Below, one piece after another: positions 2,405-57,934 of a stretch of 64,000 bases of DNA. This DNA comes from Candidatus Aenigmatarchaeota archaeon (GTDB lineage: Archaea; Aenigmatarchaeota; Aenigmatarchaeia; QMZP01; QMZT01). The stretch lies in contig JAPLVC010000004.1 of assembly GCA_026397315.1 (NCBI GenBank), positions 1 to 64,000 on the forward strand, in the 5' to 3' direction. Position 1 is the stretch's first letter. Each line of letters opens with the position of its first letter. The notes beneath the pieces are model-generated. The model saw nothing but the letters and a program-made list of their open reading frames with translations, was not told the DNA's origin and searched no databases. The position numbers and the translations under genes are program-made.

Positions 2405-2412
2405 ATTTAATC

Positions 2413-40997: not shown

Positions 40998-41360
40998 CTA
41001 AAGCTTTTCCTTCCCGGACTTCAGCGTGCCCGAGACGCGCACGGTCTGGAATATCGCCTTCGAATCGCCTATCTGGCGGACGAGCGCTAAAGCGAACTTC
41101 ACGTCGTCCACGTATTTGTGCGAGCACTGGATGACGCCTTCCCTGTCGCTCCACAGGTTGCGGATGACCCACGGCTTCGCCTTCGCCATGCCGCTCTCGC
41201 CCATCCAGCCGAGCATCGAGCCCATGATGGCATTGCGCGCTTCGGAAAAATCGAGCCTCATGCTGGACTGGATCCTGAAGAATACGTATCGTTTCCGCTC
41301 GACCTGGCTGGGCATGTGCTTCAGCCTCGACGGCTTCTTTGCATGCGTCTTTTCGGCCAT
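40998..41360 (-). CDS. rnp2: RNase P protein component 2 (Pop5/Rpp14 family)
   Basis: RKRYVFFRI...AKPWVIRNLWSDREGVIQCSHKYVDDVKFALALV...VRVSGTLK aligns closely to archaeal Pop5. Confidence 0.8.
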   Translation of the reverse strand: MAEKTHAKKPSRLKHMPSQVERKRYVFFRIQSSMRLDFSEARNAIMGSMLGWMGESGMAKAKPWVIRNLWSDREGVIQCSHKYVDDVKFALALVRQIGDSKAIFQTVRVSGTLKSGKEKL

Positions 41361-41503
41361 GTTTGATTATTCTCCTCCGTTGTTATTATATTGCATATAT
41401 AATCTGTAATATAATCTGTAATATATAATTAGGGGTTTGTTCCTACTTATGAGTATTTAAAACCTATCTACATATAAAAAGTATCAAAAATAATTACTTA
41501 GGA

Positions 41504-41971
41504 GTGTTAAAAAAGCAACAATTTAATTTGATGAAATTTCCAGAGGACTTTTATATGATCGCTGCCGATTACAGGGAGCCGGTGAACCTGGACTCGATTG
41601 AAATCAACCTTACGGCGAGCATGATATGCTCCAACATGAACCGCCTCTGCATACTCTACCTTCTCAAGAAATCTGACAAAAACTGCATGCAGGCCGAGAA
41701 GATCGCCTCGACTCTTGGAATCTCGCACCGCACTGTTCTTTACCATCTTGACATTCTCAAGGACTACGGCCTGGTCGAGGTAAGAGAGTTCAGAAAAAAG
41801 GGTGCGAAGCTGCTGCGTTCCGTGTGGGGACTCAGCGAGGAGAACGGGACCAGCGTCGAAAAGGTATTCGGCCGCATCTGCAAGAAATTCGACATTAAAG
41901 AGATAGAAAAAATGCTCGGCGAGAACTGCGGTGCCACACTATCCAGGAAAAGAAACCCGATGGACAACTAA
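41504..41971 (+). CDS. ArsR-family winged-helix transcriptional regulator
   Basis: ASMICSNMNRLCILYLLKKSDKNCMQAEKIASTLGISHRTVLYHLDILKDYGLVE HTH. Confidence 0.7.
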   Translation: MLKKQQFNLMKFPEDFYMIAADYREPVNLDSIEINLTASMICSNMNRLCILYLLKKSDKNCMQAEKIASTLGISHRTVLYHLDILKDYGLVEVREFRKKGAKLLRSVWGLSEENGTSVEKVFGRICKKFDIKEIEKMLGENCGATLSRKRNPMDN

Positions 41972-42315
41972 GATAAAATCATCCAAGCCAGTCTAATTTT
42001 CATGCAAGCCTCATTTTAGTTCTAAAATATTATCGGGCACAAGCGGCTTGGTATCAAACCAGTTTCATACTGGTTTCAAATAACCTACAACCATCCCGGG
42101 AATTTTTTTCATGGATGTTTTATTTTCCTATTTGTGAGTGAATACACTTTTTGCAACATTTTTCTTGGAACAAAGTAGGTTTATAAACGTTTCGAAAATT
42201 TTCGGTAAGTATATAAAGATTCATCCGAACGTCAAAGCAATGCATGAACTTTTAGTACACGATTTAGCAGGTTTTGAGTTAGAGTTTTATAATATAGAAA
42301 AGGATTTTTGGTGAG

Positions 42316-45300
42316 GTGAGTCAGATGAATACGAATAAGATGAAGGCATACGTCGGCGCCGTAGGCGCGACGAAACTGACTGCCATAATCGTTATGGCTT
42401 GTATTCTGGGGGTTTTCGCTGTCTCGATGGCTAGCGTTTTTGCCGAATCCAATGCTCAAATCTACACAACGGATATCGAAGGTATAGCGAAATTAGATTT
42501 CACCCCTGATTCAATAGTATATATACACGGCACGAGTTTCTCACCTAACTCGTCAATAAGCATCACCCTCACCAGGCCAGGCCAATATTCATATTCAGAA
42601 TCCTGTGGTCCAGAATATTGCGATATATCGAACATTTTTGGCGGTCCACCTGAAATAGAAACAGGTTTCGACGCACCACAGACCTCGAATGAAGAGGGAG
42701 ATTTCGTTTATAGATATGACTTAGACGGTATAGTCGGAGAATACACAGTCACAGTCACCGATGGCGCAGATGTAAAGACTTTTGTTTTCACCGACGCGAG
42801 AAATATTAACTGGGCCAAATTGAACGGAACAAGTACTGTAACAGTTCTACCCAGCACTAGCATCACAGCTTCTGTGAATGTTACAACAACCAGTACAGAT
42901 CATGACTGGAAATGCACAAAATATAAAATAGAGGGTGGAAGTAACATCACTGTAAATCACGGAAACCATTATGGACAAGGTACATACATAGAATCATTTT
43001 CTATAACAGCACCTGCGACACCTGGCATCTATGATGTCAGTTTTTGGGCCTTTGATGATAATGATTGCACAAGTGGCCAAAGTATTGAAAAGAAATTGGT
43101 AGATGGCATAACAGTCACATCACCTGCTATTTGCGGTAATGGTGTAAAAGAAGGCTCTGAAGGATGCGACGATGGTAACACAGCAAATGGCGATGGTTGT
43201 AATTCCGGTTGTCAAGTAGAAACTGGATGGGCATGCACAGGGACACAGCCGAGTGTTTGCACTCCTGCCTGTGGTAATGGTATTATAACTTCACCTGAAA
43301 CCTGCGACGATGGCAACACGGCCAGTAGTGATGGATGTAGCAATGTTTGTCAGACAGAGAATGGCTGGACGTGCACAGGCACTCCAAGCGTTTGCACTGT
43401 AGCAAACCAGAATCTTACGCAGTCCTGCGGCATAGACATGGCGCTTGTGATAGACGTTTCCGGCAGCATAGACAGCACAGAACTTGCACAGATGAAGACG
43501 GCTCTTAATAGTTTTGTTGACGCATTCCTTCCGAACACACCGACGAAAATAGCTGTCATCAAGTTCGATACGACAGCAACAGTTATTCACGCATACTCAA
43601 ATGATGCCACATCCCTGAAGAACGCCATTAATGGCGCAAGTGGCGGTGGATACACCAACTGGCAGGATGCTCTTCTTGACACCCATTCATTGTATGACCA
43701 CAGGATTGACAAGCCTGATTTGTACGTTTTCGCTTCTGACGGAGAACCGAACAGATACGGCGACCCGGCAGTAAGTGCCACGACACCTGTAGCTGTCGCA
43801 CACGCTGTTACTGAAGCGAACCACATAAAACTTCACGGCATCAGAATAATAACGCTTGGAATAGGAACAGGAGGCAGCTCATCTCTTATAAACAACCTCA
43901 AGGCGATTTCAAGCAATGACGCTTATTACGACACGAATTTCGAAACTATTGCAGATGACCTCGCCGACCTTGCCAACGATTTGTGCGGCGGGACAATAAA
44001 CGTCCAGAAATTCGTTGACGGCAACACCGCTGCCGACTGGCAGTTCGCTGTCACTGGCGGAACTTCGAACCCACCGTCAGGTTACACAGGAACTGACGGC
44101 TTTATCACTTTTGACATAGACACCAGCGGCGGAAATGCGACCGTCAGCGTGACGGAAACAGTACAGAACGGTAATAGTTTCACGAGCGCCCACTGTTATA
44201 GTGATTCGCAGCACCAGAACGAAGTCGGAACACCGGGACAGGGAACAGTGGTCAGCATACAAGTCGGTGCGAACGACGCGATTTACTGCGAGTTCAACAA
44301 CCACCACAACGTTTGCTCTGAATACTCGACAGAAGGCAGCTGCAACGCGCAGACTGGCCTTTGTACATGGTGCCCGCAGTGTAATCAGCATCATCAATGG
44401 AGTAGCCTGCTTGGCGGAGACCAGTGCGTCCCTGCAGGTGCATGCCCGAACCCCTACACATGTGAATACGGGGAATGCGGCGCCGAATGCGAAGATGACG
44501 AAAGACCTTGCACGGCATACTGCGACCAGAGTCTGAATTATTATGGGGCAGGAATTTGCGGAAATGATTGCACCTGCAATTATCCATCACCAACTCCCTG
44601 CGACGATGGTGACAAATGCACGACAGACGGATGTAGTAATGCTAATGGATGCGCACCACATGAACCAGTCGACTGCAACGACAATAATATATGCACGATA
44701 GATTCATGCGACCCATCAGTCGGCTGTTCTAACGTAAGGATACCTACCGAAACTTCTTGCACCGACCAGATAGACAACGATTGCGACGGCAAGACAGACT
44801 GCGCTGACACCGATTGTGCGGGAACTCCTACATGCTTCTACCAGAGACCGTGCGATGCCCCAACCGATATCTGTCAATGGAACAAAGTTCTTCCGCTTGG
44901 CTCAGAGAACTGCTGCGGCTGCAATCTCGGTTTCAATACCTATTGGCCGCTTAACACTCAAGCAAGCGCAGAATGCACTTTCACTGCTGATGCAAACATG
45001 AAACAGAAACTTTACATCTCGGTGAACAACGATGTGATAAGATGCACGCTTAACGGAAACGTAATTTTCGAAAACCAACAGCACGAAGGCTGTGCGGAAA
45101 TAAATCCTAGAAACGGTTATACCGTTCCTATTAGTCCGACTGCCGGTGTAAACACAATAATTTGCGAAATAAATGACAGAGGTTCGATGACGCACTTCGA
45201 TGCATGCGTTGTTGAAAAACAATGTTTTAACAACGCTGATTGTGACAATGGTTTATACTGCGACGGCATTGAATATTGCGATCAAAACAATCAGTGTCAG

Positions 45301-48300
45301 CCAGGAACTCCTGCTGACTGTTCAGACCAATTTTTCTGCACCGTTAATGAAAGATGTGAAGAAGGAACGAGTACATATGAATGTTTATCTGACCCACTTG
45401 ACTGCTCCGGAAACGACATCCAAGGAATAGCGACTTGCACGAACGACCCTGACAACTACGCATGGACTTTTGATTTCAGAAGCCTCTTCACAAGCATCTG
45501 CGATGACGATAACAATGTTTGTACGAGTGGTAGTGAAGACATATCACACACATGCGCAGATGCTAATGCGACCGACGGCGGACCGGTTATTCTGCCTCAG
45601 GGAGGCGTGAGCACATGCACGGCTGAGTGCGATAGCTATGGAACGGAATGCCAGCCGTACCTTAACCCAGCGAATGATTATTGTTATTACAATGGACAAT
45701 GTAACACGAATCCGACAGTATGCCAGTGTGCTTATTCAGGCGTGCCATGCCCGGACCCTGGTTACATAGATGAAAATAGGATCTGCCACTATGGCGAGAG
45801 ATCCTGCACCGCAAACGGATGTGTTTATCGATACAACGACCCAATGGGCTGCAAGGACATCTGCGATCCGGTTTTGGGACCGCAGGACACGACAGGCCCG
45901 ATCACCGACATTCTTAAGATAACGCCGAACCCGACTTGCGGTAAGATAAGCTTCAACGCGACCATAACCGAGAACTGCACCAACATCTCGGACGGACTAT
46001 ATGCGATAGATATTGGGATAGATTTCTGCCCGTTTCCGGGTTACGGAGGCTATCAGGTTCTTCCGCTTGACGACAGCTCATATGATGGAGACAAAATGCA
46101 GGAGCTTGTAGGCAAGATTAACCTGATGCTGACGGGCTACAACGACGGACGCCACACCCTTTACGTCAGGGGCAAGAACACTGACGGCACATGGGGCAAC
46201 TGCGATTCATACGGCTTCGCCTTGGACACTCTGGCGCCCGCGACAGAATCGCAGAGCATAACGCCCAACATGGCGTGCGGCAGCAATCCTTACTTCGTAG
46301 CGAGAATTTGCGACCCATTCAACGAGTCAGGCATGTGCGGCGCGGAATACTACATAGATGATTTCACACAGGGAAACGGCGAAGGAATACCGATGTACCC
46401 GGTCGACGGACAGTGGAACGACGCATGCGAGTACGTTTACGCGTGGGTTGACATAAGCCAGGTTTCTGAAGGGACGCATTACATAAAGGCTCACGGCATT
46501 GACTGCACAGGATGCAACTGGGGCAAAATTGAGAACTTCGCTCCGGTATGGTTCATAAAAGACACTGTAGCTCCGGTATCGACAAAGACTGTCGGAACGC
46601 CGAAGATACAGTGCAGCAGCGACGTGGGAGAGTGCTGGTTCATAACCCAGGGCACTGAGATAACCATGAACGCCCAGGACTCTGATCCGGGCTTCGGCGA
46701 ATACTCAGGAAACCTGAACATATCTTCGCACTACCCGTACTACCAGGGATACGTTAACATTTATTACAGACAGAGATGGAAGGAGAACTACGATTCAGAA
46801 GAGTGGGGAACGTGGAGCAGCTGGACTCTTTACACGGGTCCGTTCAAGTTCACGGAAGACTCACTCCACGAGATAGAGTACTACTCTACGGACGCCTGTG
46901 CCAACAACGAAACATCGAAATTCGAGCTTGACATAGTCGACACTCAGCCACCCGAGACCGCAAAAGACGTCTTGGGCCCGAAAGTCGCAGGCGACGGCAA
47001 CCCGATACACTACTACATAACAGATGACAGCACGATAAAACTTACATGCACAGACCCGCAGCCTCACCCGGTAGACCAGGTCACTCTTAACTGGGCGGTT
47101 TACTACAGTGAGAACTGCACGAACCCGACATGGAGCAGCGAGCCGATAATGAGCGGCCATGAGCAGGGCGGCTACAAGGAGATAACGAACCTTCAGGACT
47201 CGTGCCACAAGATTGTTTACAGCTGCGTCGACGCGCTCAACAACGTTGAAACAGAGCACGTCGAGATAGACGCGGTCGACAACAAGTATCCGCTTGTAGA
47301 AAAGGCGGTAGACGAGCCGAAGGTGCCATACACACTTCCCATCCAATACATGGGCACGGAACCGTTTGATGTGGCAGACCAAGCATGGTATGTCAACCAG
47401 AACACGCTGATAACGCTGACATGCACCGACCAGCTGCCTCATCCGGTCGACGATGTCAAGATATACTACAAATATTATGTGGACGGCGTGCAGCATCAGA
47501 ACTGGACGGAATACACCGCACCATTCACATACAACGAGGACACGTACCACAATCTCTACTACTACTGCGTTGACGCCCTTGGAAACAAGGGACCGACGCA
47601 CGTCGAATTGGACGTGGTTGACACGCAGGCTCCGACCTCGGTGAAAACGCTGACAGGCGCGAAGCACGCATGCACACCTGAAGAGGCGAGCATGTACGGC
47701 ATAGCGGACTGCTCGTTCATAACGCACGACACAAAAGTCGAGCTGTCCTGCACCGACGGCAACCCGCACCCGGTTGATGACGTCGAGCTTCACTACAAGA
47801 TTGAGTGGAAGCTGAACTGGGAAGGCAGCTGGCAGACCCTTAGGGACCAGACAGTAGAAGACAATTACACGAGCTTCTACTACGAGGATCTTCCGGTAGA
47901 ATACCAGGATTCGTTCCACAAGCTCACTTGGTACTGCGTAGATGCGCTTGACAACACGGAGAGCCAGCACGTAGAATTGGACATTGTTGATACACAGGCG
48001 CCGCAGACCGTGAAGACGGTCTCGATGCCGAAATACGCAGGCCCGATAGGCAGCGGCATAGACTACTACATAACCAAGGATACTGTAATCAATCTGACAT
48101 GCACAGACGGCAACCCGCACCCGGTTGACCATGTAACCCTTAACTGGAAAATTTACTGGAGCAGCGAATGCGGACCAAACGCTGTCTGGAGTATAGATCC
48201 GATAGCAAGCGGTGCAGAGGGAGACGGCAACGTTCTGATAACCAACCTCGGCGATTCATGCCACAAGCTTGTCTACAACTGCGTCGACCAGCTCGGCAAC

Positions 48301-51300
48301 GCTGAAAACACACAGGTCGAGATAGACGCGGTCGACAACCAGGCGCCAATCGGAACAAAGAACGTTGGCCAGCCTAACGTGCCCTGCGTCGGCGAAGTAG
48401 AATGCACGCAGTTCGACTACTGGGTTCGTGACCACGTCACGACGGTAACGCTTGACTGCACCGACGCACAGCCGCATCCGATCGGCGGAGAGCTGATGTG
48501 CTACAAGATGGGCTACGACGTCCCAGCGACGCCAGACCTTACACAGCAATATTGCACGCAGTTCGGCGGCAAAATGGAAGCTGACGGATACTGCTGCGTA
48601 GACGTCGATGGCAGCAAGAACTATGTATTCAATTTCACGGAAGATTCCGTGCACACACTGGGTTACTACTGCAAGGACGCATTCGGAAACGCCAACGGCC
48701 TTGACACGGAGACGTTCAAGGTAGACTCGATCGCTCCTAACACAACAAAGACTTATGAGGGACCGTTCTACACCGATGGCAAGTCAGACTGGATAGACAC
48801 CGTATCAACGGTAAAACTTACTGCAACTGATGGCGGAGAGATATGCCACGTAGACGGCACGACCACATACTACGCGGTCACACAGGTGAACGAATCGTTC
48901 TGCTACGATCCGGCAGCGAACTGCCAGCAGATGCACACATACGAGCAAGGCGTCTGGAACACATACACTAGCGCATTCCCGGTCGCTGAGTCATGCCACC
49001 TGATAGAGTTCTACAGCGTGGACGTGCTCGGCAACAAGGAACCGATAAAGCACCAATGCGTGTTCTCAGACCACACAGCTCCAGCCACAAACAAGACTTA
49101 CGGAACACCGCTAGTGGAAGCTGTCACAGGAGGTTATCCGAAGTGGATAACTTCAGCGACACCGATAACCCTTACAGCTGAGGACCAGCTGCCGCACCCG
49201 TCCGGACTGAAAGAAACAAAGTACAGGGTGACGCTTGTGAACGACCTGAACTGCTACGAAGCGTGCAATGCAGAAAGCATCGGCGCATGGAACACCTACA
49301 CGGTGCCGTTCACAATCACGGAAGACTCCTGCCACATGATAGAGTACTTCAGCATAGACAACGTCCAGAAGACCGAGCCGGTCAAGAAGCAGTGCATATT
49401 CGTGGACAACAAGGCGCCGATATCGAACAAGACGTTCGACGGCTTCAACGTCCCGTGCAGCGAACTGACTTGCAGGACTGAAGGCAGCTGTGATTACTAC
49501 ATAAACCAGAACACGAAGATAATACTCAGCTGCACCGACCAGCTCCCGCACCCGGTCGACGACGTCAAGATATACTACAAATACACTGTTGACGATCAGC
49601 CACACGAATCATACTCGGACTGGACGCTATACACTGCTCCAATACAATATAATGAAGATTCGAAACACACTCTCGAATGGTACTGCGAGGACGCCCTTGG
49701 AAACAGGGAGCAGACTCACACCCAGATAGAGAGAGTAGACACAACACCTCCGACGACAGTCAAGACGTTCAGCAAACCGACATACCCTGAAGATTTGAAC
49801 CAGAACGGAACAATAGACAACGAGCAGGAACAGAATTACTGGGTCACTTCGGACACTGCGATAACGCTGACCACGACTGACGGCGGACCAATATGCGCAG
49901 CAGGCTCTTCAAAGCTTTACTACACGGTAAAGTGGGACAAGAACTGCGACGGCGACTTCAATGATTTCGGCGAAGTCGTGATAAATAATCAACACGTGCA
50001 TGTGAACGCAACCACGTGCGAACTCAAGAAGACCTTGTATCTGGAAGGCGAGTGCCTGCATGAGATAAGATGGCATGCAGTCGACGCTCTTGGAAACGTT
50101 GAAACAGAACACGTGCAGCAGCACAAGGTCGACAACAGTCCTCCGCACATACTGATACTTAAGCCGGTCGACGGCTGGTATTCGAAGGGCGAGGACATAC
50201 CCGCGATAGCTGAAGTCAAGGATCTCAACAGTGCGGACAGCCCGTGCGAGCAGTTCAGGAACAACTGCAACGAGCTCGGCGAGAACTGTGCGGTAGGCAT
50301 CGAGGACGGAGCGCAGTGCTACGCCTTCCTTGTGAACCTTGAGTTCCTTAACATGAACCCGATGGAAATATTCGACCTGAGCGACGTGACGAGATATAAT
50401 CTCGAAACGAACGGAACGCTCCTTTACAATGCGGCAGCGCAGGAATGCCAGGGCTATGCAGTAATCCCCGAGAACAGCGACGTGCAGAGCGGCATCCACA
50501 TATTCGTCGTCGAAGCTGAAGACAGCCTCGGCAACTACGCCAACAGCATCGACGAGATAAGGCTTGCGATAGACCAGGCATGCGGCGGCGGCTGCTGGAG
50601 CAGCGACCCGTACGACCTGTGCGAGCCACAGTGCGTTGAGGACGTCCTTCAGGACATAATAACGACATGGAACCTGCCGAAGATAGGCATAGACACGAAC
50701 GCACCGGAAGTTGTGATAACGGCACCGGTTGACACAGAGGGCTATTACGTTGACAAGGGACAGCTTGCTGTCTCGGCTGACGTGACCGAGTCCGGCATAA
50801 CGTGCGCGATAACTTCAGGCACGCCGTGCTACGTGAAAATCGACGGGACATCAATCGGAACTCTGTACTATGATAATAACGAGAAGGAATGCACTGGTAC
50901 GCTTGTGGTGCCCGAGGATGTGCCTAACGGCATGGAAGTTCCATTGACAGTCGAAGTCTCCGACAACTGCGGCAACATCGGAAAGGGAGTGGTTTATGTC
51001 ACGGTTGACACCATGAACCCGGCACCGGTGATACTTGCAGCGGAGGACGTCGAGAACCCGCCATACGACACTGATGGCAACTACGACCTTGTATGGACTG
51101 GCGGAACCGACACGAACTTCAAACAATTCGATATAGTAATAGATGGCACGACCTACTACGACGTGACGCAGCCTTACGAAGGCCTTTCGGCCGAGGGCAG
51201 GCACACGTACAAGGTCATCGCTACCGACGAAGTCGACAAGATTGCAACTTCCAACGAAGTGGTAGTCTGGGTCGACACTGTAGCACCTGGACTGGACGTG

Positions 51301-52425
51301 ACGGGAAGCACACCCAACATGGGATTCTTCCTGTTCACATACACCGCGATTGATCCAAACCCGAGCTCCGGCATGCAGCCGCTTCAGGTGATTGGCGGTT
51401 TCGGAGGCATCTGCTCGAACACGCTTCCGGCAGGCTTCTGCATGGTCGCAGGCACGAATGATGCAATACTTAAAGCATGCGACAACGCGGGCAACTGCGT
51501 CAGCCACTCGACTGAAGGCACTGAAACCGACGTGACCCCGCCTTCGATAATCTACTCGAGCCCGAGCGGCAAGATAGAGCAGAACGAAGAGCTTAAACTG
51601 GAAGTAACGACAAACGAGCCGGCATACTGCTATTACGGCACGGAAGACAACTGGGCCACGATGACACAGATGAGCACATCTGTAAACATAGACCATTCGA
51701 TTGACCTTCCAAGCCCGCTTGCAGACGGCCTTTATGTCTACCACGTCCAGTGCAGGGACTTCGCAGGCAACATAATGGACAGCTCGAAAACGATAGTGTT
51801 CTACGTGAACACTGACGGCCAGTACTGCTACAGCACGGACATGACTGCAGGATGGAACACGTTCTTCCTGCCACAGCTGATACTGGACGACATCAACTTC
51901 AACTGCGGCTATGAGCCGTACGAGACAGCTGATGTACTGGGCTCGCTTGAAGGCAAGTACAGCATAGTGTGGTACTACGATGAGAGCGAAGGGTGGCTGT
52001 TCTACACGCCACAATATCCGGAGTTCTCGACACTGACGCAGTTCAGCGACCAGACAAGCAATCCATACTACATAAAGATGACCGGGCCGGCAAAGCTCGG
52101 ACTCCAGTGCGAGGATGAATGTGTCAGCAACTACTGCGGTGATGGCCAAGTCAACGGCGACGAGCAGTGCGAACTTCCTGACGATAATAACAACGAATAC
52201 TGCACCCAGACGACGCAGCAATGCTACCAAGATACTCACAAGACGCAATACAGGGACGCATACGGCTACTGTGATGAATCGTGCGGCTGCATGGAAGATC
52301 AGGAGTGGGGATCGCCCCAGTGCTTAAAGGACAGCTGCGGAGCGACGTGTGGCGGCGACAGCGACTGCTCGCAAGGACAATACTGCAACACAGAAATTTG
52401 CCAGTGTATGAACATACCTGATTAG
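42316..52425 (+). CDS. giant secreted/surface protein (3369 aa). It has an N-terminal signal/anchor helix, two Cys-rich repeats (CGNG..EGCDDGN..DGC), a VWA domain with MIDAS motif, a Cys/Asp-rich block, about 12 tandem modules of roughly 130 aa, and a Cys-rich C-terminus
   Basis: A single uninterrupted ORF preceded by GGTGAGGTGA. VWA motif is LVIDVSGSID...TNWQDAL. The repeated module consensus is VDTQAP..VKT...C...I..DT.I.L.CTDG.PHPVD.V...YK......Y..PF.Y.EDS.H.L.YYCVDALGN.E..HVELD. Confidence 0.85.
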   Translation: MSQMNTNKMKAYVGAVGATKLTAIIVMACILGVFAVSMASVFAESNAQIYTTDIEGIAKLDFTPDSIVYIHGTSFSPNSSISITLTRPGQYSYSESCGPEYCDISNIFGGPPEIETGFDAPQTSNEEGDFVYRYDLDGIVGEYTVTVTDGADVKTFVFTDARNINWAKLNGTSTVTVLPSTSITASVNVTTTSTDHDWKCTKYKIEGGSNITVNHGNHYGQGTYIESFSITAPATPGIYDVSFWAFDDNDCTSGQSIEKKLVDGITVTSPAICGNGVKEGSEGCDDGNTANGDGCNSGCQVETGWACTGTQPSVCTPACGNGIITSPETCDDGNTASSDGCSNVCQTENGWTCTGTPSVCTVANQNLTQSCGIDMALVIDVSGSIDSTELAQMKTALNSFVDAFLPNTPTKIAVIKFDTTATVIHAYSNDATSLKNAINGASGGGYTNWQDALLDTHSLYDHRIDKPDLYVFASDGEPNRYGDPAVSATTPVAVAHAVTEANHIKLHGIRIITLGIGTGGSSSLINNLKAISSNDAYYDTNFETIADDLADLANDLCGGTINVQKFVDGNTAADWQFAVTGGTSNPPSGYTGTDGFITFDIDTSGGNATVSVTETVQNGNSFTSAHCYSDSQHQNEVGTPGQGTVVSIQVGANDAIYCEFNNHHNVCSEYSTEGSCNAQTGLCTWCPQCNQHHQWSSLLGGDQCVPAGACPNPYTCEYGECGAECEDDERPCTAYCDQSLNYYGAGICGNDCTCNYPSPTPCDDGDKCTTDGCSNANGCAPHEPVDCNDNNICTIDSCDPSVGCSNVRIPTETSCTDQIDNDCDGKTDCADTDCAGTPTCFYQRPCDAPTDICQWNKVLPLGSENCCGCNLGFNTYWPLNTQASAECTFTADANMKQKLYISVNNDVIRCTLNGNVIFENQQHEGCAEINPRNGYTVPISPTAGVNTIICEINDRGSMTHFDACVVEKQCFNNADCDNGLYCDGIEYCDQNNQCQPGTPADCSDQFFCTVNERCEEGTSTYECLSDPLDCSGNDIQGIATCTNDPDNYAWTFDFRSLFTSICDDDNNVCTSGSEDISHTCADANATDGGPVILPQGGVSTCTAECDSYGTECQPYLNPANDYCYYNGQCNTNPTVCQCAYSGVPCPDPGYIDENRICHYGERSCTANGCVYRYNDPMGCKDICDPVLGPQDTTGPITDILKITPNPTCGKISFNATITENCTNISDGLYAIDIGIDFCPFPGYGGYQVLPLDDSSYDGDKMQELVGKINLMLTGYNDGRHTLYVRGKNTDGTWGNCDSYGFALDTLAPATESQSITPNMACGSNPYFVARICDPFNESGMCGAEYYIDDFTQGNGEGIPMYPVDGQWNDACEYVYAWVDISQVSEGTHYIKAHGIDCTGCNWGKIENFAPVWFIKDTVAPVSTKTVGTPKIQCSSDVGECWFITQGTEITMNAQDSDPGFGEYSGNLNISSHYPYYQGYVNIYYRQRWKENYDSEEWGTWSSWTLYTGPFKFTEDSLHEIEYYSTDACANNETSKFELDIVDTQPPETAKDVLGPKVAGDGNPIHYYITDDSTIKLTCTDPQPHPVDQVTLNWAVYYSENCTNPTWSSEPIMSGHEQGGYKEITNLQDSCHKIVYSCVDALNNVETEHVEIDAVDNKYPLVEKAVDEPKVPYTLPIQYMGTEPFDVADQAWYVNQNTLITLTCTDQLPHPVDDVKIYYKYYVDGVQHQNWTEYTAPFTYNEDTYHNLYYYCVDALGNKGPTHVELDVVDTQAPTSVKTLTGAKHACTPEEASMYGIADCSFITHDTKVELSCTDGNPHPVDDVELHYKIEWKLNWEGSWQTLRDQTVEDNYTSFYYEDLPVEYQDSFHKLTWYCVDALDNTESQHVELDIVDTQAPQTVKTVSMPKYAGPIGSGIDYYITKDTVINLTCTDGNPHPVDHVTLNWKIYWSSECGPNAVWSIDPIASGAEGDGNVLITNLGDSCHKLVYNCVDQLGNAENTQVEIDAVDNQAPIGTKNVGQPNVPCVGEVECTQFDYWVRDHVTTVTLDCTDAQPHPIGGELMCYKMGYDVPATPDLTQQYCTQFGGKMEADGYCCVDVDGSKNYVFNFTEDSVHTLGYYCKDAFGNANGLDTETFKVDSIAPNTTKTYEGPFYTDGKSDWIDTVSTVKLTATDGGEICHVDGTTTYYAVTQVNESFCYDPAANCQQMHTYEQGVWNTYTSAFPVAESCHLIEFYSVDVLGNKEPIKHQCVFSDHTAPATNKTYGTPLVEAVTGGYPKWITSATPITLTAEDQLPHPSGLKETKYRVTLVNDLNCYEACNAESIGAWNTYTVPFTITEDSCHMIEYFSIDNVQKTEPVKKQCIFVDNKAPISNKTFDGFNVPCSELTCRTEGSCDYYINQNTKIILSCTDQLPHPVDDVKIYYKYTVDDQPHESYSDWTLYTAPIQYNEDSKHTLEWYCEDALGNREQTHTQIERVDTTPPTTVKTFSKPTYPEDLNQNGTIDNEQEQNYWVTSDTAITLTTTDGGPICAAGSSKLYYTVKWDKNCDGDFNDFGEVVINNQHVHVNATTCELKKTLYLEGECLHEIRWHAVDALGNVETEHVQQHKVDNSPPHILILKPVDGWYSKGEDIPAIAEVKDLNSADSPCEQFRNNCNELGENCAVGIEDGAQCYAFLVNLEFLNMNPMEIFDLSDVTRYNLETNGTLLYNAAAQECQGYAVIPENSDVQSGIHIFVVEAEDSLGNYANSIDEIRLAIDQACGGGCWSSDPYDLCEPQCVEDVLQDIITTWNLPKIGIDTNAPEVVITAPVDTEGYYVDKGQLAVSADVTESGITCAITSGTPCYVKIDGTSIGTLYYDNNEKECTGTLVVPEDVPNGMEVPLTVEVSDNCGNIGKGVVYVTVDTMNPAPVILAAEDVENPPYDTDGNYDLVWTGGTDTNFKQFDIVIDGTTYYDVTQPYEGLSAEGRHTYKVIATDEVDKIATSNEVVVWVDTVAPGLDVTGSTPNMGFFLFTYTAIDPNPSSGMQPLQVIGGFGGICSNTLPAGFCMVAGTNDAILKACDNAGNCVSHSTEGTETDVTPPSIIYSSPSGKIEQNEELKLEVTTNEPAYCYYGTEDNWATMTQMSTSVNIDHSIDLPSPLADGLYVYHVQCRDFAGNIMDSSKTIVFYVNTDGQYCYSTDMTAGWNTFFLPQLILDDINFNCGYEPYETADVLGSLEGKYSIVWYYDESEGWLFYTPQYPEFSTLTQFSDQTSNPYYIKMTGPAKLGLQCEDECVSNYCGDGQVNGDEQCELPDDNNNEYCTQTTQQCYQDTHKTQYRDAYGYCDESCGCMEDQEWGSPQCLKDSCGATCGGDSDCSQGQYCNTEICQCMNIPD
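46228..50160 (+). repeat. in-frame tandem array of about 12 divergent modules of roughly 330-390 nt each within the giant gene (protein-level repeats)
   Basis: Module starts recognisable at about 46228, 46561, 46940, 47275, 47614, 47983, 48328, 48721, 49066, 49404, 49738 and 50130 (V-D-[TN]-x-[AP]-P motif). Confidence 0.6.
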
Positions 52426-52526
52426 ATGGGCCAAAGAGGCCCTTTCCTCTTTTATTTACTATTCAGGAGGAAAAAGAACCCAAAAGGTATATAAAGATAG
52501 ATTACATATAAAAAGTAAGGTAAACT

Positions 52527-53699
52527 ATGAAAAATAACTTCGCATTATCCGGAATCGTTTTTGTATCTTTGATTTTTGTTTTAGCCCAGTCCGCTTACGC
52601 CACCAGTTTTCCATGCGCTTTCGGCGGAACAGTCACAGTCAACGGTAATCCGATTGCCGGAGAACAGGTTACAGCATATCTGAACGGAACTGGAGTGCTT
52701 GTGGGCGAAGGCAAAAACACGAGCGCCGGATATGGCATCTCGATAGTCGATGCCAGCGACCAGTATGTCTTTTTCAAAGTCATGGGCACGCTTGCCAATG
52801 AAGGTTTGCAAAACTGCGTTGAAGGAACTTTCACACAGCTTAACCTTACGGTGGATGACGGTGATAACGATGGCTACAATGTTCTTGAAGATTGCAACGA
52901 CTCGAATGCGGCTGTGAACCCAGGCGCGGCCGAGATTTGCAACGGCATAGATGACAATTGTAATGGTGTTATTGACGAAGGTTTCAGCGACCTCAACACT
53001 TCATGTACTGTAGGCATAGGAGGCTGCGCGAGAACCGGAGTCAAGATATGTTCTGCTGACAAGCTTTCAGTTGTCTGCAGCGTCACTGCTGGAGCACCGA
53101 GCTACGAAGCATGCGGTGACGGCATAGACAACGACTGCAACGGCCTCACCGACGAGATCTGCGGCGGCGGTGGCGGCGGTGGAGGCGGTGGCGGCTCAAG
53201 CGCTTACTGTGGCGACGGCAATCTCCAGAAATACAGGGGCGAAGAGTGCGAGCTGAACATCGCATGCAACGGCACGGGCCTGACATGCAACCTTACAAGC
53301 TGCAAGTGCGTCGAATGCACCGAGAGCTGGGCATGCGGAGAGTGGGGACAGTGCGCTGGCGGCGTTCAGACGAGGACTTGCGTCGACGCGAACACGTGCG
53401 GCACGGTCCTGCAGAAACCATCCGAGAGCCAGACCTGCACCGGAAGCGGCAGCAGCGGCACCCAGATAACGAATCTTGGCGCGATAGTGTGCGGCAACGG
53501 CGTGTGCAACGACGGCGAAACATGCGAGAACTGCCCGGCGGACTGCCAGTGCGCTGGAGCGAACGCGCAGGAAAATCAGGGCTTCAACATATTAGGCGTA
53601 TTCACCGGAGCGCCCGGCTTGAGCCTGCTTGGCCTGCTTGCGCTGGCAATAATCATAGCGATTCTGTTCTTCACGACGCGCAAGAAGAAAAAGAAGTAA
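52527..53699 (+). CDS. secreted Cys-rich surface protein with MopE-like putative metal-binding repeats, a poly-Gly linker and a PGF-CTERM-like C-terminal anchor
   Basis: Signal peptide ends at AQSAYA; DCNDSNAAVNPGAAEICNGIDDNCNGVIDEG and CGDGIDNDCNGLTDE motifs; GGGGGGGGGGGSS linker; C-terminus GAPGLSLLGLLALAIIIAILFFTTRKKKKK. Confidence 0.7.
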   Translation: MKNNFALSGIVFVSLIFVLAQSAYATSFPCAFGGTVTVNGNPIAGEQVTAYLNGTGVLVGEGKNTSAGYGISIVDASDQYVFFKVMGTLANEGLQNCVEGTFTQLNLTVDDGDNDGYNVLEDCNDSNAAVNPGAAEICNGIDDNCNGVIDEGFSDLNTSCTVGIGGCARTGVKICSADKLSVVCSVTAGAPSYEACGDGIDNDCNGLTDEICGGGGGGGGGGGSSAYCGDGNLQKYRGEECELNIACNGTGLTCNLTSCKCVECTESWACGEWGQCAGGVQTRTCVDANTCGTVLQKPSESQTCTGSGSSGTQITNLGAIVCGNGVCNDGETCENCPADCQCAGANAQENQGFNILGVFTGAPGLSLLGLLALAIIIAILFFTTRKKKKK

Positions 53700-53700
53700 A

Positions 53701-54132
53701 TTATTTTTCTTCTTTTGCTTTTATTTCATCTTCAGTCTTTACTTTAATCCCGTTCTTCTTCAGCAGCGCGGCCGTTATGCCGTCGCCTTTCACCAGTTTT
53801 CCTGAGAACGAGCCGTCGTAGATTTCGCCTGAGCCGCACGAAGGCGATTTGGCCTTTAGTATCGCTTCCTTGCATCCGGCGAGTTTCGCTATTTTCAGCA
53901 TTTCTGCAGCGCCTTTCGCCAGCGCTTTCTTCACATCCCTGCCGTCGCATGCGAAGGCGCGGCCGTTTATGAGTTCGGTTGCCAGCCTGGGAGTGGTCAG
54001 GCCTCCGAGCTGCTCGGGGCAGACTGGAATCGCCTTGCCTTTCCTGACCATTTCCATGACTTTTTTGCTGGATTTGGAATTGCCGTCATACCTGCATTTC
54101 ACGCCCGCGAGGCATGCGCTCACAAGTTTCAT
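53701..54132 (-). CDS. DUF523 (TudS-like) [4Fe-4S]-binding protein
   Basis: SACLAGVKCRYDG N-terminal motif characteristic of DUF523. Confidence 0.7.
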   Translation of the reverse strand: MKLVSACLAGVKCRYDGNSKSSKKVMEMVRKGKAIPVCPEQLGGLTTPRLATELINGRAFACDGRDVKKALAKGAAEMLKIAKLAGCKEAILKAKSPSCGSGEIYDGSFSGKLVKGDGITAALLKKNGIKVKTEDEIKAKEEK

Positions 54133-54142
54133 TGAATCACCG

Positions 54143-54721
54143 TCAAATCATTTTTCTTATCTCTTCGTTGAACCTCTTCGCCCTTTCGAGAGACGTTTTT
54201 GCCTTGTTTTGCATGGCAGACAAGCCCATCTCGTAAGTGAACCTGGCCCTTTTCCTTCTTTCGTGAAAATAATCGTCCATTAATCCCTTGGCTTTTTCCC
54301 TGCCGAGCATCTGGGTCGCGTCTTCCTCCGCGTCGGCGAAGTCTTCCACAATCTTCTTCTGAAGTTTGCCCGTGAGGTAGAAATAATAAACGAACGCGTC
54401 GAACGTAACGGCATGGATCGAATCCTCGGTCTTTATTTTAACTCCTTCATTTTCAAGCAGTGCCCTCGCCATGTAAAACATCGAATAATAACTCGCGTTT
54501 ATCACCCACAGGAAGCCGTTGAAATCCCGGAAGCCGGTTGATTCTTTCAGGTTTTTGTCGGTCGAAACTCCAAAAAGCAAAAGAGCTGACTCCAGCGAAT
54601 TTCTGGCGTTGTCCAGGAAGAACTGCACGAACCTGCTGTCGCCTCCCTTCGTTATGACGCCTCTTCTTATGCAACTCTCGGCATTCCTTTTCGCTTCCCC
54701 TATTCTTTTATCATCTAGCAT
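54143..54721 (-). CDS. HEPN-domain protein (putative toxin of a HEPN/MNT pair)
   Basis: All-alpha 192-aa protein immediately downstream of, and overlapping, the MNT gene; Rx4-6H-like motif near HERRKRARF. Confidence 0.5.
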   Translation of the reverse strand: MLDDKRIGEAKRNAESCIRRGVITKGGDSRFVQFFLDNARNSLESALLLFGVSTDKNLKESTGFRDFNGFLWVINASYYSMFYMARALLENEGVKIKTEDSIHAVTFDAFVYYFYLTGKLQKKIVEDFADAEEDATQMLGREKAKGLMDDYFHERRKRARFTYEMGLSAMQNKAKTSLERAKRFNEEIRKMI

Positions 54722-55319
54722 TTTTCAGCAACCTGTAATAATTTTCAGCGCCGAACAATAAAATATGGCTGTCCAAAGACTCGTTCATGACGTTTGCCTG
54801 ATCCCTTTTGGCGAGCATTTCGCAAGCGCTTTCGACGGATATCGCATTGCAGTCGAATTTCAGGCTGAACCTGGAAGATATCGTATCCATGAATTTTTCC
54901 GCGGCTTCGGTTTTGTTCCCGTCTTCCAATATGATCAGGGTGTCGACGTCCGAGCCTTTCGTTTCCTTGCATTTCGCGTAAGAGCCGAAAAGCAGCATCG
55001 TAAAGTAGTCCATCTTTATCCCTTCAAGCGCGTCCTTTACGAAAAGTCCGATAGTTTTGTTCTTTTCGAGGAATTCTGCCATCCTAAGGCCTTCCACGTA
55101 GCTTAAAATGGAATGATTTTCCTTGTAGTTCAAAGACACCAGGTTGTGGGTATCCTTTTCCAGCAGCTTGTTCTCAATGAGAGCTTTCACGGATCTGTGC
55201 ATAAGCGGATATGGCTTGCCTGCCGTTTCCGCGACCTGTCTTACGCTAAATTTCTCAGTTATTTTCGAGACAAAAATTTTCATTATTGCCAGCTGAGTCT
55301 TGGTTAACATCACTATCAC
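54711..55319 (-). CDS. minimal nucleotidyltransferase (MNT) with N-terminal winged-helix domain (putative antitoxin)
   Basis: LFGSYAKCKETKGSDVDTLIIL (GS-x9-13-DxD) motif; N-terminal HTH; 11-nt overlap with the HEPN gene. Confidence 0.7.
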   Translation of the reverse strand: MIVMLTKTQLAIMKIFVSKITEKFSVRQVAETAGKPYPLMHRSVKALIENKLLEKDTHNLVSLNYKENHSILSYVEGLRMAEFLEKNKTIGLFVKDALEGIKMDYFTMLLFGSYAKCKETKGSDVDTLIILEDGNKTEAAEKFMDTISSRFSLKFDCNAISVESACEMLAKRDQANVMNESLDSHILLFGAENYYRLLKNAR

Positions 55320-55451
55320 TATTTTGATATAATATTATATCTTTTTAGTTATATTTAAGCTTTCATGTTTTTAATATCGCAAAGTATACGCAGGTTATAA
55401 AAAAATATAACCCTGGTATAAAATAAGCAGATTTGAAGGTGACAGTCTCGA

Positions 55452-56144
55452 TTACTCCACTTCCACGCCGGGCATGATCCACTTCCCGCCCAATCGCTTT
55501 CGATTCTCCAGCAGCATCTTGCCGGATATGGCGATTTTGGAGTATTTCGGGTTGAGGCCCAGCAGCCTCGCGAACGAGAGGAGTTCCGACGGCGCCCGCA
55601 GGTCGTACGGGTCGACAGCGCCTGACGTAAGAATGAAGGGAGGCTTGTATTTCCTGACCAGCTTCGCGTTCTCCAGCATGCTCGAGAAAACGTCCGCTCG
55701 CGTCTTCCTGTTAGATATAAGCACGTTCCTCATGTTGAATTCGATAGCTACGTTGTTCTTTTTCGCGAGCTTGGCCATCACAAGATCGATGCCGCCATCG
55801 TTCCTGCCCATTTCCGGGTGCGCTAAAACGTCGATTTCAGGCGTTTCACAAGCGACTCTGTTGACCTCTATGTTGCCTCCGTGGACGAGAATCACTTCGA
55901 CTGCCTTCCGCGCCTTCCTGGCGAGCTTCTGCATCTGGTCGGGGTGGCTGGTCTCGATCTTGAGGCCGAAAGACACGTCTAAGGGGGATTTGGAAGGCAT
56001 GGAGGCGAACTGGTCGCGAAGGGCGGAAACGTCTTCGAGCGACTTGCTTACGAAGCATACGCCTTTCCATCCCATGCGTTCGAGAAGCGTGAGCATGCCG
56101 TTCACGTCGACCTCGGCGTGCACATGATATTCGTAGAAACTCAT
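55452..56144 (-). CDS. rnp3: RNase P protein component 3 (Rpp30, TIM-barrel)
   Basis: MSFYEYHVHAE start; GIDLVMAKLAKKNNVAIEFNMRNVLISN...AKLVRKYKPPFILTSGA aligns to archaeal Rpp30. Confidence 0.7.
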   Translation of the reverse strand: MSFYEYHVHAEVDVNGMLTLLERMGWKGVCFVSKSLEDVSALRDQFASMPSKSPLDVSFGLKIETSHPDQMQKLARKARKAVEVILVHGGNIEVNRVACETPEIDVLAHPEMGRNDGGIDLVMAKLAKKNNVAIEFNMRNVLISNRKTRADVFSSMLENAKLVRKYKPPFILTSGAVDPYDLRAPSELLSFARLLGLNPKYSKIAISGKMLLENRKRLGGKWIMPGVEVE

Positions 56145-56199
56145 GAAACCCCTAATCTATAATTGGTTTAGCGGGGTTTTAAAATAATCAATACAATAA

Positions 56200-56856
56200 A
56201 TGAACGTTATGGCTGGCATGGACGCGGCAACGGACGAATTCTACGAGCGGCGGGAGCGTATGGTATCGGAGCTGGTCACGCAGGGCCTGCTCAGGACTGA
56301 GAAAATAATAAAGGCGTTCCTCGAGGTCCCGAGGCACGTGTTCGGGGGCGAGCAGAACGAACGCTTCGCCTATGGCGATTACCCGATACCCATCCCGGAC
56401 AGCCAGACCGTGAGCGCGCCTCACATGGTCGCGGCCATGACAGAGCTGCTGAGACCTGAAAGGAAGGATAAGGTGCTGGAAATCGGCAGCGGCTCAGGCT
56501 ACCAGGCGGCAATCCTGTCGAAGCTGGTGAAAAAGGTATACACGACGGAGATAAGCCCTGAGCTCGCAGCTTTCGCCAGGTCGAATCTCAAAAAAGCCGG
56601 CGCCAATAACGTCGAAGTCATGCTCGCGGATGGCAGCGAGGGCTACGCTAAAGCGAAGCCATACGATAAGATAATAGTCACCTGCGCCACGCCAGAGATA
56701 TTCGACGCGTGGCTGGCGCAGCTCAAGGTCGGCGGGATTCTGATAGCACCGCTAGGGAGCGGATTCTACCAGGAGCTGATACACATAAAAAAGACTGCCA
56801 AAGGCATTGAAAAAAATAACTACGGCAGCGTGGCTTTCGTGCCGCTGAGAAGGTAA
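56200..56856 (+). CDS. pcm: protein-L-isoaspartate O-methyltransferase
   Basis: VLEIGSGSGYQAAIL SAM motif, DSQTVSAPHMVA motif, about 218 aa. Confidence 0.9.
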   Translation: MNVMAGMDAATDEFYERRERMVSELVTQGLLRTEKIIKAFLEVPRHVFGGEQNERFAYGDYPIPIPDSQTVSAPHMVAAMTELLRPERKDKVLEIGSGSGYQAAILSKLVKKVYTTEISPELAAFARSNLKKAGANNVEVMLADGSEGYAKAKPYDKIIVTCATPEIFDAWLAQLKVGGILIAPLGSGFYQELIHIKKTAKGIEKNNYGSVAFVPLRR

Positions 56857-56861
56857 AAAAT

Positions 56862-57191
56862 TTATTGTAAAGTGTATTTTTCTGGCATGGCGTTCTCAAA
56901 GTTTATGCTCTGTGCTAAAAAGGACATCGAACCGTTTCTATTTGGCACCAAAGACCCTGGCATTATGTCCAGATCTTTTACATCTCCTTTTTGCAAGCCT
57001 CTCATCATGGATGAATATTCTTCAGAACTTAATTCCGTGAGTTTCATCACACCGTTCAATGATTCAGAGCCAATATAAACAGTTTTTGTGGATATGTCCG
57101 CGACTAGATAATTTTGCTCGCCTGTTCTTTTGAAACCTCCGAAAACAAAAACTCTCCTGGCAGATATCGATTCTTCCCTAGTCATTTCCAT
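56862..57191 (-). CDS. hypothetical protein (109 aa)
   Basis: ORF only. Confidence 0.3.
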   Translation of the reverse strand: MEMTREESISARRVFVFGGFKRTGEQNYLVADISTKTVYIGSESLNGVMKLTELSSEEYSSMMRGLQKGDVKDLDIMPGSLVPNRNGSMSFLAQSINFENAMPEKYTLQ

Positions 57192-57204
57192 CTTTACACC
57201 CTAT

Positions 57205-57768: not shown

Positions 57769-57934
57769 ACCAACCCTTAATATTAACTACTTTATAGTAG
57801 TATTCTATTACTTATAAAGCTTTTTCCGCCCGTTTCTGGACTAAAAAATGGCGATTTTTATTGCTTACGGGTTAGCCGAAGCTATCCGATTTATGAGAAT
57901 AAAAACAGAGAACAAAAAGAAAGGTGCGGCGCCT

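Follow-up and report, generated by a model that had tools for sequence, protein, structure and literature searches.

The stretch of DNA analysed here, referred to as the window, comprises 64,000 nt from a Candidatus Aenigmatarchaeota archaeon (contig JAPLVC010000004.1, positions 1-64,000; GCA_026397315.1). In this window, the genes for two protein subunits of RNase P, Pop5 and Rpp30, both on the minus strand, are separated by an interval of 14,091 bp (41361-55451), which is occupied by genes for surface proteins, an ArsR-like protein and a nucleotidyltransferase (NTase) cassette. We consider it quite likely that the interval represents, in this genome, an old slot of fixed position and variable content which splits the ancestral Rpp30-Pop5 pair in one family-level clade. 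The gene map, obtained from a listing of open reading frames (ORFs) and Pfam scans of the window, is as follows.

37900-39426, minus strand: nadB (ORF listing and Pfam)
39459-40361, minus strand: nadA, downstream of Pop5 (ORF listing and Pfam)
40998-41360, minus strand: Pop5 (rnp2), protein subunit of RNase P, forming one conserved flank of the slot (PF01900, E=3.5e-14)
41361-41530, no strand: spacer between the divergent ArsR-like and Pop5 genes, with a conserved core of ~60 nt (alignment A3, 11 loci)
41504-41971, plus strand: ArsR-like winged helix-turn-helix (wHTH) gene (HTH_20/HTH_5)
41972-42324, no strand: spacer 5' of the giant gene, with TATA-like boxes, a palindrome and a Shine-Dalgarno-like site
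42316-52425, plus strand: giant secreted protein, 3369 aa counted from GTG 42316 (VWA and DUF4215, Pfam)
52527-53699, plus strand: Cys-rich protein with the MopE motif, 390 aa (PF11617, E=4.5e-19)
53701-54132, minus strand: member of the DUF523/2-thiouracil desulfurase family, co-directional with Rpp30 (PF04463, E=5.4e-45)
54143-54721, minus strand: all-helical partner of the NTase, 192 aa, weakly HEPN-like (Pfam HEPN, E=8.6e-4, below the gathering score)
54711-55319, minus strand: wHTH-NTase of the Pol-beta superfamily, 202 aa (Polbeta/NTP_transf_2, above Pfam cut-offs)
55320-55451, no strand: AT-rich spacer from the Rpp30 stop codon to the NTase cassette (GC 0.25)
55452-56144, minus strand: Rpp30 (rnp3), protein subunit of RNase P, forming the other conserved flank of the slot (PF01876, E=1.6e-36)
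56200-56856, plus strand: PCMT methyltransferase, divergent from Rpp30, a marker of the clade (PF01135, E=5.7e-57)

The genes of the interval thus form two opposed sets, with the ArsR-like, giant and MopE-motif genes on the plus strand and those for the NTase, its partner and the DUF523 protein on the minus strand. A first-pass annotation of the same sequence had placed Pop5 and Rpp30 on one strand 14 kb apart, and the Pfam matches show its coordinates and both gene calls to be correct. Its list of the genes between them was also recovered as regards the ArsR-like, secreted 3369-aa, MopE-motif anchored, DUF523 and NTase proteins; only the HEPN assignment of the NTase partner proved weak. A protein recorded at NCBI for a Ca. 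Aenigmarchaeota metagenome-assembled genome (MAG) matches Rpp30 with 100% identity, which places the organism among the DPANN archaea, and the Pop5 homologues collected (n=43) were all of the Aenigmatarchaeota type.

Adjacency of Rpp30 and Pop5 in the classical archaeal superoperon has been described in the literature (PMC4919917). We surveyed it by scanning species-representative genomes with an Rpp30 profile, which gave 80 Aenigmatarchaeota loci with 10-kb flanks (loci carry L numbers below), and by locating Pop5 in them with a hidden Markov model made from the 43 homologues. Pop5 lay on the same strand at most 120 bp downstream of Rpp30 in 38 of the 80 loci and 129-2657 bp downstream in a further 25, so that in 63/80 loci across the phylum it follows Rpp30 within 2.7 kb; the order was reversed in one locus, and in 16 Pop5 was not found in the examined sequence. 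Genes intervening in the 25 loci with small gaps are ordinary, small and co-directional (NUDIX, CutA1, hydrolases, HAD, LAGLIDADG). The earlier statement that the two genes are usually neighbors is therefore borne out by both the literature and the survey and, given that Pop5 lies within 2.7 kb in 63 of the 80 loci, the Rpp30/Pop5 split is derived relative to the arrangement prevailing in the phylum. The possibility that the Rpp30-Pop5 junction is a phylum-wide hot spot for toxin-antitoxin (TA) genes was ruled out by the types of inserts in distant orders, which are NUDIX, CutA1, alpha/beta-hydrolases, HAD, an MFS fragment and LAGLIDADG/intein-like ORFs. The last of these, 387-431 aa long, separate Rpp30 from Pop5 in two distant members of the phylum (L076:9561-10724 and L079:10883-12178).

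Two other distant Aenigmatarchaeota (L015, L028) retain the complete order Rpp30-Pop5-PsmA-SBDS-Rrp4-Rrp41-Rrp42, and psmA is found inside the flank in 55 loci. It is absent from the flanks of every locus of the window clade and its sister groups, and no match to PsmA, SBDS, Rrp4, Rrp41 or Rrp42 was found in the window or in the loci of its clade; in the window, nadA and nadB follow Pop5 instead. When compared with the archaeal exosome/proteasome superoperon, the flanks of the interval correspond to its first two genes, with order and strand kept, but the operon is broken twice: once after Rpp30, where 14.1 kb of largely antisense genes precede Pop5, and once downstream of Pop5, where nadA/nadB take the place of psmA.

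The split is not confined to the window. It was observed in every locus whose Rpp30 is at least 57% identical to that of the window (L003, L004, L010-L014), where Rpp30 is followed by convergent MopE-like and giant genes, and the same arrangement occurs in L021, whose Rpp30 is 46% identical. In a neighbor-joining (NJ) tree of Rpp30 the window groups together with L014, L013, L011, L007, L003, L012, L004 and L010, while L021 joins near this split-with-giant cluster at an unresolved node. Divergent pairing of PCMT and Rpp30 is present in all clade relatives. The best-resolved relative is the 1.1-Mb contig CAVSBQ010000002.1 (loci L002/L010 and L005), whose flanking genes show 66-72% protein identity to those of the window. 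Reading from its divergent PCMT-Rpp30 pair, Rpp30 is followed in the same direction by genes for AbiEii, an AbiEi-like protein and DUF523, and then, in the opposite direction, by those for a MopE-like protein, proteins of 762 and 1332 aa, another AbiEii, a 210-aa protein and ArsR; divergent from the latter are Pop5 and a split nadA, with nadB and UbiA further on. The Rpp30-Pop5 interval of this contig amounts to about 12,069 bp (record coordinates) and contains two AbiE pairs, and homologues of the ArsR, giant, MopE-like and DUF523 genes lie in it in window order, with the DUF523 orthologue at the same position in L002. The first-pass annotation had itself named the same genes in related genomes as grounds for refutation; this finding partly supplies them, and the idea of a recently acquired island peculiar to this genome is not supported.

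A metagenome scan with the Pop5 profile added 14 loci. The complete frame, namely PCMT divergent from Rpp30 at one end and, at the other, ArsR divergent from Pop5-nadA-nadB-UbiA, was recognized in the window, L005/L010, L007, L009 and L097, and parts of it in L003, L004, L011-L014 and L092-L105. What lies inside this frame differs widely, and the size of the interval across genomes is 0.67, 6.1, 12.1 or 14.1 kb. The 6145-bp interval of L007/L009 contains only ArsR and a 1751-aa beta-helix/HYR/Ig protein; in the giant of L007, neither phmmer nor BLASTP detected similarity to the window giant. In L097 (8638-10348) the ArsR-like gene stands alone in an interval of 670 bp, oriented towards Rpp30 and divergent from Pop5. 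ArsR is accompanied by an AbiE pair in L092 and L096, and by giants in L093, L100 and L105. The closest relative, L006 (GCA_043808015.1), shows 84-90% nucleotide identity to the window over 32.4-41.4 kb and 87% next to Pop5; its similarity ends at ~41400, some 40 bp upstream of where Pop5 starts, and at this point it has a wHTH-NTase gene 29% identical to that at 54711-55319 in the window, and its contig ends thereafter. Comparison of rnp2/rnp3 synteny, suggested earlier as a check, thus confirmed that the cargo varies, down to ArsR alone in L097, but showed the split to be a property of the clade and not of this genome. The slot is old and fixed in position, and its cargo turns over from the genus level upward.

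The only constant resident is the ArsR-like gene, which adjoins Pop5 in divergent orientation in every informative clade locus except L006. In L005 and L007 its orthologues share 65-77% identity with the window protein, and phmmer gave matches of the same strength in L092-L105. With regard to the ArsR/SmtB metalloregulators, an HTH is present, but the protein scores 32.7 bits against an NCBIfam ArsR/SmtB cut-off of 55, and no CVC-type metal-sensing motif (ELCVCDL-like) is visible in its sequence. We therefore keep to the label "ArsR-like HTH". The core of the spacer that separates it from Pop5 (about 60 nt, window 41420-41500) is kept in 9 of 11 related loci (alignment A3). It contains TTTTTAACACTC-N-TAAGTGATTA, a CACT-N5-AGTG palindrome adjoining ArsR, and after it TTTATATGTAGATAAGTTTTTTATAC, which forms two back-to-back TATA-like boxes. 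From this arrangement we infer a putative bidirectional promoter with an operator. Because GTG 41504 falls within the palindrome, and the ArsR proteins of relatives begin 20-27 residues later, the true start of the ArsR-like gene is probably ATG 41531 or 41555.

The most conspicuous part of the cargo is the giant gene. Its likely start is ATG 42325, behind the Shine-Dalgarno-like GGTGAGGTGAG site, and the spacer 5' of it (GC 0.331) has TATA-like boxes within a palindrome at 42180-42217. The predicted protein has one hydrophobic segment, an N-terminal signal/anchor at aa 11-45, and no further transmembrane (TM) segment; the following parts can be distinguished in it.

nt ~43117-43395, plus strand: two Cys-rich DUF4215 repeats (Pfam)
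nt 43435-43953 (aa 374-546), plus strand: VWA domain with a metal-ion-dependent adhesion site (MIDAS) motif (PF00092, E=3.6e-13)
nt 44317-45885 (aa 668-1190), plus strand: Cys-rich insert of ~520 aa
nt ~46639-50130, plus strand: about 10 immunoglobulin (Ig)-like repeats of 111-131 aa each
between the Ig-like repeats and the C-terminal module, plus strand: a further beta-rich region
nt ~52120-52422, plus strand: C-terminal Cys-rich module

The IDVSGS (DxSxS) part of the MIDAS motif was read from the sequence, and its T and D positions were assigned by eye. An AlphaFold model of the repeat unit, computed from an alignment of the internal repeats, is a confident 7-strand beta-sandwich (predicted local distance difference test score, pLDDT, 87.4; predicted template modelling score, pTM, 0.80), which in Foldseek gave weak FN3/Ig-like matches in the PDB (E>=0.03). 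When three segments of the giant were compared by sequence with the PDB, the only matches were a DUF4215-like stretch in pappalysin-2 and a VWA-like one. Homology searches with the N-terminus are swamped by DUF4215 repeat proteins of Myxococcota and oomycetes, and only matches with ~50% coverage are informative. Residues 14-667 are 46-53% identical to the N-termini of two proteins of 1830-1870 aa (P0165/P0168) whose genes lie at another locus (L090/L091), whereas over residues 1698-3367 the identity is 46-54% and is to the slot giants of L005, L003 and L012. The giant gene is a mosaic. Among full-coverage matches to the N-terminal 667 aa, the second-locus giant is the closest. The N-terminal part, within which the GC content at third codon positions (GC3) changes sharply, is without a counterpart in the slot giants of L005 and L003.

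The 390-aa product of the next gene comprises a signal peptide, a run of Gly residues, a module of Cys/Trp repeats, a C-terminal TM anchor and a KKKKK tail. It contains the Cys-rich PF11617 motif (68.8 bits against a cut-off of 27) of the MopE copper-binding proteins, but its Cys/Trp module and TM anchor match archaeal partner proteins, not MopE. MopE-like orthologues are found directly downstream of the giant gene in L002, L003, L012 and L105, and a further one at the second locus in L090/L091. At that locus (L090:10001-16900, L091:6032-13049), a giant DUF4215/VWA gene is followed by one for an anchored Cys-rich protein and by an ArsR-like HTH gene, 32-41% identical to that of the window. The second-locus partner (302-306 aa) combines a signal peptide with Cys/Trp repeats and an anchor at its C-terminus, and its Cys/Trp module and anchor are shared by the 390-aa protein. 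In L090 the triad is flanked by MNT/HepT and wHTH-NTase pairs.

That the giant, its partner and the ArsR-like protein act together is suggested chiefly by the recurrence of this triad at two loci. To judge from domain content and topology, the giant and the anchored partner may act jointly as a surface adhesin, probably for attachment to a host or substrate, as would be expected for a DPANN archaeon. It may be hypothesized that the partner tethers the giant, but similarity between it and the C-terminal Cys-rich module of the giant is limited to a short CGDG...ECE motif (BLASTP, E=0.11); not being significant, it was rejected as evidence for tethering, and sequence gives no evidence that the two proteins interact. 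As to the function of the cargo as a whole, cell-surface adhesion, to a host or to a substrate, is the most likely one to judge from domain content and topology, and we give it an even chance. A bolder proposal, in which the ArsR-like, giant and anchored-partner genes would constitute a dedicated, regulated Aenigmatarchaeota attachment module present at two or more loci, shuffling its domains and coupled with Pop5 expression, seems improbable to us. If true, the shared promoter/operator would couple expression of an RNase P subunit, and hence growth, to that of the adhesin, and hence host contact, and the module would be one not described before.

Instead of host adhesins, the giant and its partner could be components of the envelope, S-layer-like, or binders of a substrate, mineral or polysaccharide. 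We regard this as a possible though less likely explanation. The VWA domain of the giant, with its MIDAS motif, belongs to a classically ligand-binding type, and the absence of the cassette from L097, or its exchange for an unrelated giant in L007, would be unusual for an essential envelope protein. On the other hand, Ig-like stalks and Cys-rich modules occur also in S-layer and carbohydrate-binding proteins, the Foldseek matches include Ig-like domains of Sas6 and of proteins associated with carbohydrate-binding modules, and there is no host information. Moreover, S-layer, archaellum and pili are the only structures named for attachment in a study of Aenigmarchaeota genomes (PMC8407114).

The history of the slot might also have been different from the insertion of a surface-protein locus. 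It could be imagined that the ArsR-like gene was inserted alone, that the state of L097 is ancestral, and that giant cassettes were recruited later, several times independently. In favor of such a scheme, L097 has ArsR alone between Rpp30 and Pop5; the slot giants are diverse, being of VWA (window, L100), beta-helix/HYR (L007) or Big/Ig type (L005, L003, L012), and the giant-partner-ArsR triad found elsewhere in related genomes is a possible donor. Nevertheless, this scheme appears improbable. In a tree of Pop5 and UbiA, L097 is sister to the giant-bearing L007, and is thus nested among giant-bearing lineages, while L105, which has a giant and a MopE-like gene, is the outgroup; since both sister and outgroup carry giants, the ArsR-only state of L097 is most simply explained by loss of the cassette. 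In addition, the C-terminal two-thirds of the giants, as well as the MopE-like genes, are homologous in the window, L005, L003 and L012.

That the block is a recent mobile genomic island, an integrative element specific to this genome, is very improbable, and is largely refuted by the synteny survey, which revealed homologues, arranged in the same order within the slot, in genomes of only 57-74% Rpp30 identity. Several features seemed to favor such an origin, beginning with the AT-rich edges reported in the first-pass annotation. The spacers 41361-41503 (GC 0.238) and 55320-55451 (GC 0.25) are indeed the lowest in GC of the 34 intergenic spacers of the window, but all 34 are AT-rich (median GC 0.36 against 0.507 overall), and the segment 41380-42315 is not a junction, since it contains the ArsR gene (GC 0.476) between the spacers 41361-41503 and 41972-42315. 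The AT-rich edges are ordinary promoter-bearing spacers, and the one at the Pop5 side is conserved in sequence across the clade, which a recent insertion would not lead one to expect. No repeat family has copies at both block edges, and the short direct repeats proposed at 41380-41500 and 55320-55450 were not found there. Neither was a tRNA detected in the 64-kb window by ARAGORN, nor an Rfam match at the gathering threshold or at E<=0.1, nor an integrase, recombinase or transposase domain in the seven block genes by Pfam.

Composition was also considered as a possible sign of recent arrival. The block genes have a GC3 of 0.60-0.67, in comparison with 0.73-0.84 in their neighbors, and within the giant gene there is a step at ~45.9 kb, from 0.35-0.53 over 42316-45915 to 0.60-0.75 thereafter. 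Tetranucleotide correlation falls to 0.32-0.46 over 42-52 kb, but this stretch coincides with a single repetitive gene of skewed amino-acid composition, and the value is 0.91 over 52-56 kb; the deviation was for this reason rejected as evidence of foreign origin. Within the block, a clearly atypical GC3 is limited to the 5' 3.6 kb of the giant gene, and the tetranucleotide deviation is confined to one gene. GC3 low relative to the own genome was found also in the VWA-type N-terminal part in L100 and L090, and in the unrelated giant of L007; modules exchanged between lineages, or codons that are weakly adapted, may account for it in giant genes. The last point in favor of a recent island is that the close relative L006 differs from the window immediately upstream of Pop5.

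The least probable explanation is that no insertion occurred, Rpp30 and Pop5 being unlinked in this lineage and brought into proximity by rearrangement, for although Pop5 is missing within 8-10 kb downstream of Rpp30 in a sister group (L016, L018-L020, L022, L023) and the superoperon from psmA onward is absent in all loci of the wider clade, the window clade keeps the ancestral order and strand of the two genes, the interval is as short as 670 bp in L097, and in L025 and L063, outgroups within the same PCMT-linked group, the two genes are directly adjacent.

The best reading is therefore that the block is an ancient insertion which has turned into a replacement-type flexible island for surface proteins, and not a recent insertion. 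According to the mechanism that we propose, the founding insertion would have occurred in one family-level clade of Ca. Aenigmatarchaeota and have broken the Rpp30-Pop5 operon inherited there. Its constant resident would be the ArsR-like gene, divergent from Pop5 across the conserved putative bidirectional promoter and presumed to regulate both itself and the cassette. Downstream of it, antisense to the RNase P genes, there would lie a replaceable surface-protein cassette, represented in the window by the presumably Sec-exported 3369-aa giant and the small Cys-rich protein with its C-terminal TM anchor. The Rpp30-side end of the slot would gather two-gene NTase cassettes and small enzymes, co-directional with Rpp30; the NTase pairs may be addiction or defence modules of the kind typical of variable regions. 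Surface cassettes would be shuffled, replaced and occasionally lost, with the NTase cassettes changing alongside, and the giants might diversify by domain shuffling between paralogous giant genes.

Some of our observations weigh against this reconstruction. The trees on which it draws are small NJ trees of one protein (Rpp30) or two (Pop5 and UbiA) without support values, so that a single ancient insertion is a matter of parsimony only. An independent assembly (L001) is 100% identical to the window over 53936-57959, and only this part of the block is so confirmed, because exact-sequence look-ups of the MopE-like and DUF523 proteins returned no record. The somewhat lower GC3 of the block genes must be counted here too, as must the giant gene with its clearly atypical 5' third; a more recent horizontal exchange could thus have affected some of the cargo. 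The earlier view of an accessory surface island in a housekeeping neighborhood should thus be retained in so far as there is an insertion relative to the ancestral state, with variable surface and TA-like cargo, and modified in that this insertion is not recent and bears no mobility signatures.

A separate problem is the nature of the NTase cassette next to Rpp30, which had been described as a HEPN/MNT toxin-antitoxin pair. The first of the two proteins fits this description well. It has the active-site motif GSx10DVD (GSYAKCKETKGSDVD, aa 112), which agrees with G[SG]-x9-13-DxD, an HVO_A0114-like HTH at the N-terminus (Pfam), and a match to PADLOC PDC-M05A over nearly the full profile length (E=4.6e-13). 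The partner, whose gene overlaps that of the NTase by 11 nt, matches PDC-M05B over 53 residues (E=1.2e-3) and scores 19.9 bits with Pfam HEPN, below the cut-off of 22. The R-x4-6-H RNase motif was not found in its sequence; a PDB sequence search gave no match, and a single-sequence AlphaFold2 model (pLDDT 48) is unusable as a test of the fold. The cassette resembles MNT-HEPN and AbiE pairs, and the PADLOC candidate defence system PDC-M05, in consisting of two overlapping genes, one of them for a Pol-beta-type NTase, and AbiEii/AbiEi pairs occupy the same spot in relatives. It differs from classical MNT and HEPN, which are smaller proteins, as those of the window have 202 and 192 aa and the NTase carries an N-terminal wHTH. 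"HEPN/MNT pair" is in our opinion a fair working label for the type of cassette, of which this would be a candidate member. The same position is occupied by AbiEii and AbiEi in L002 and L003, by an uncharacterised gene and AbiEii in L004, by a methyltransferase in L014 and by MgtC in L021, and is empty in L007 and L012.

Replacement-type flexible genomic islands, or hypervariable surface loci, are a concept of population genomics. The window slot is similar to them in its fixed position between core genes, in surface-protein cargo that differs or is non-homologous between relatives, and in the combination of TA or defence-like cassettes with absence of mobility genes. However, such islands vary within one population, whereas the variation of the window slot is observed between MAGs related at the species to family level; moreover, the slot has a constant ArsR-like resident and interrupts the RNase P operon. 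The giant itself may be likened to the SPEARE proteins of Nanohaloarchaeota, which are giant surface proteins of DPANN archaea (PMC6642349). In both cases a very large, secreted, multi-domain protein is encoded by a small-genome DPANN archaeon, with a presumed role in host interaction; the window giant is, however, built of VWA, DUF4215, Cys-rich and Ig-like repeat parts, and the likeness is one of general design and presumed function. As surface proteins of giant size in DPANN archaea, and likewise variable surface loci, are already known, the slot is not a new kind of genetic system.

What the locus offers is a dated example of how a near-universal operon (Rpp30-Pop5/exosome/proteasome) erodes in a reduced DPANN lineage, and of how a fixed chromosomal slot becomes a site of turnover for surface proteins and TA-like cassettes. 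We know of no cultured member of Aenigmatarchaeota and of no host; the giant VWA/Ig-repeat proteins, the anchored Cys-rich partners and the ArsR-like regulator can now be named as candidates for attachment proteins of this group and their control. The PCMT/Rpp30 and Pop5/nadA flanks could serve to anchor polymerase chain reaction or read recruitment aimed at natural variation of the surface proteins.

Several minor observations were made in and around the frame. In L095 (2664-6082) there is an extra insert between ArsR and Pop5, consisting of a methylpurine-DNA-glycosylase (MPG) fragment and a gene for a protein of 990 aa in which an HNH-associated repeat is combined with a methyltransferase domain. 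A canonical MNT/HepT pair lies beyond PCMT in L097 (7011-7782), and a pair at 56862-57768 of the window sits where L002 and L097 have such a pair. Beside Pop5, nadA and nadB are intact in the window and decaying in relatives: nadA is split into parts of 148 and 138 aa and nadB is fragmented in L005 (10788-14308), nadB is split in L099 (3360-4860), and both genes are absent between Pop5 and UbiA in L103-L105. Elsewhere in the window, genes at 1421-3360, 34025-34597 and 56862-57191 have a low GC content (0.35-0.40 against 0.51); this set comprises an SPFH/Band-7 gene and three ORFs without a Pfam match, and may be foreign. Finally, a lytic transglycosylase domain of bacterial type (SLT_2, E=5e-27) is encoded at 63256-63837 of this archaeal contig.

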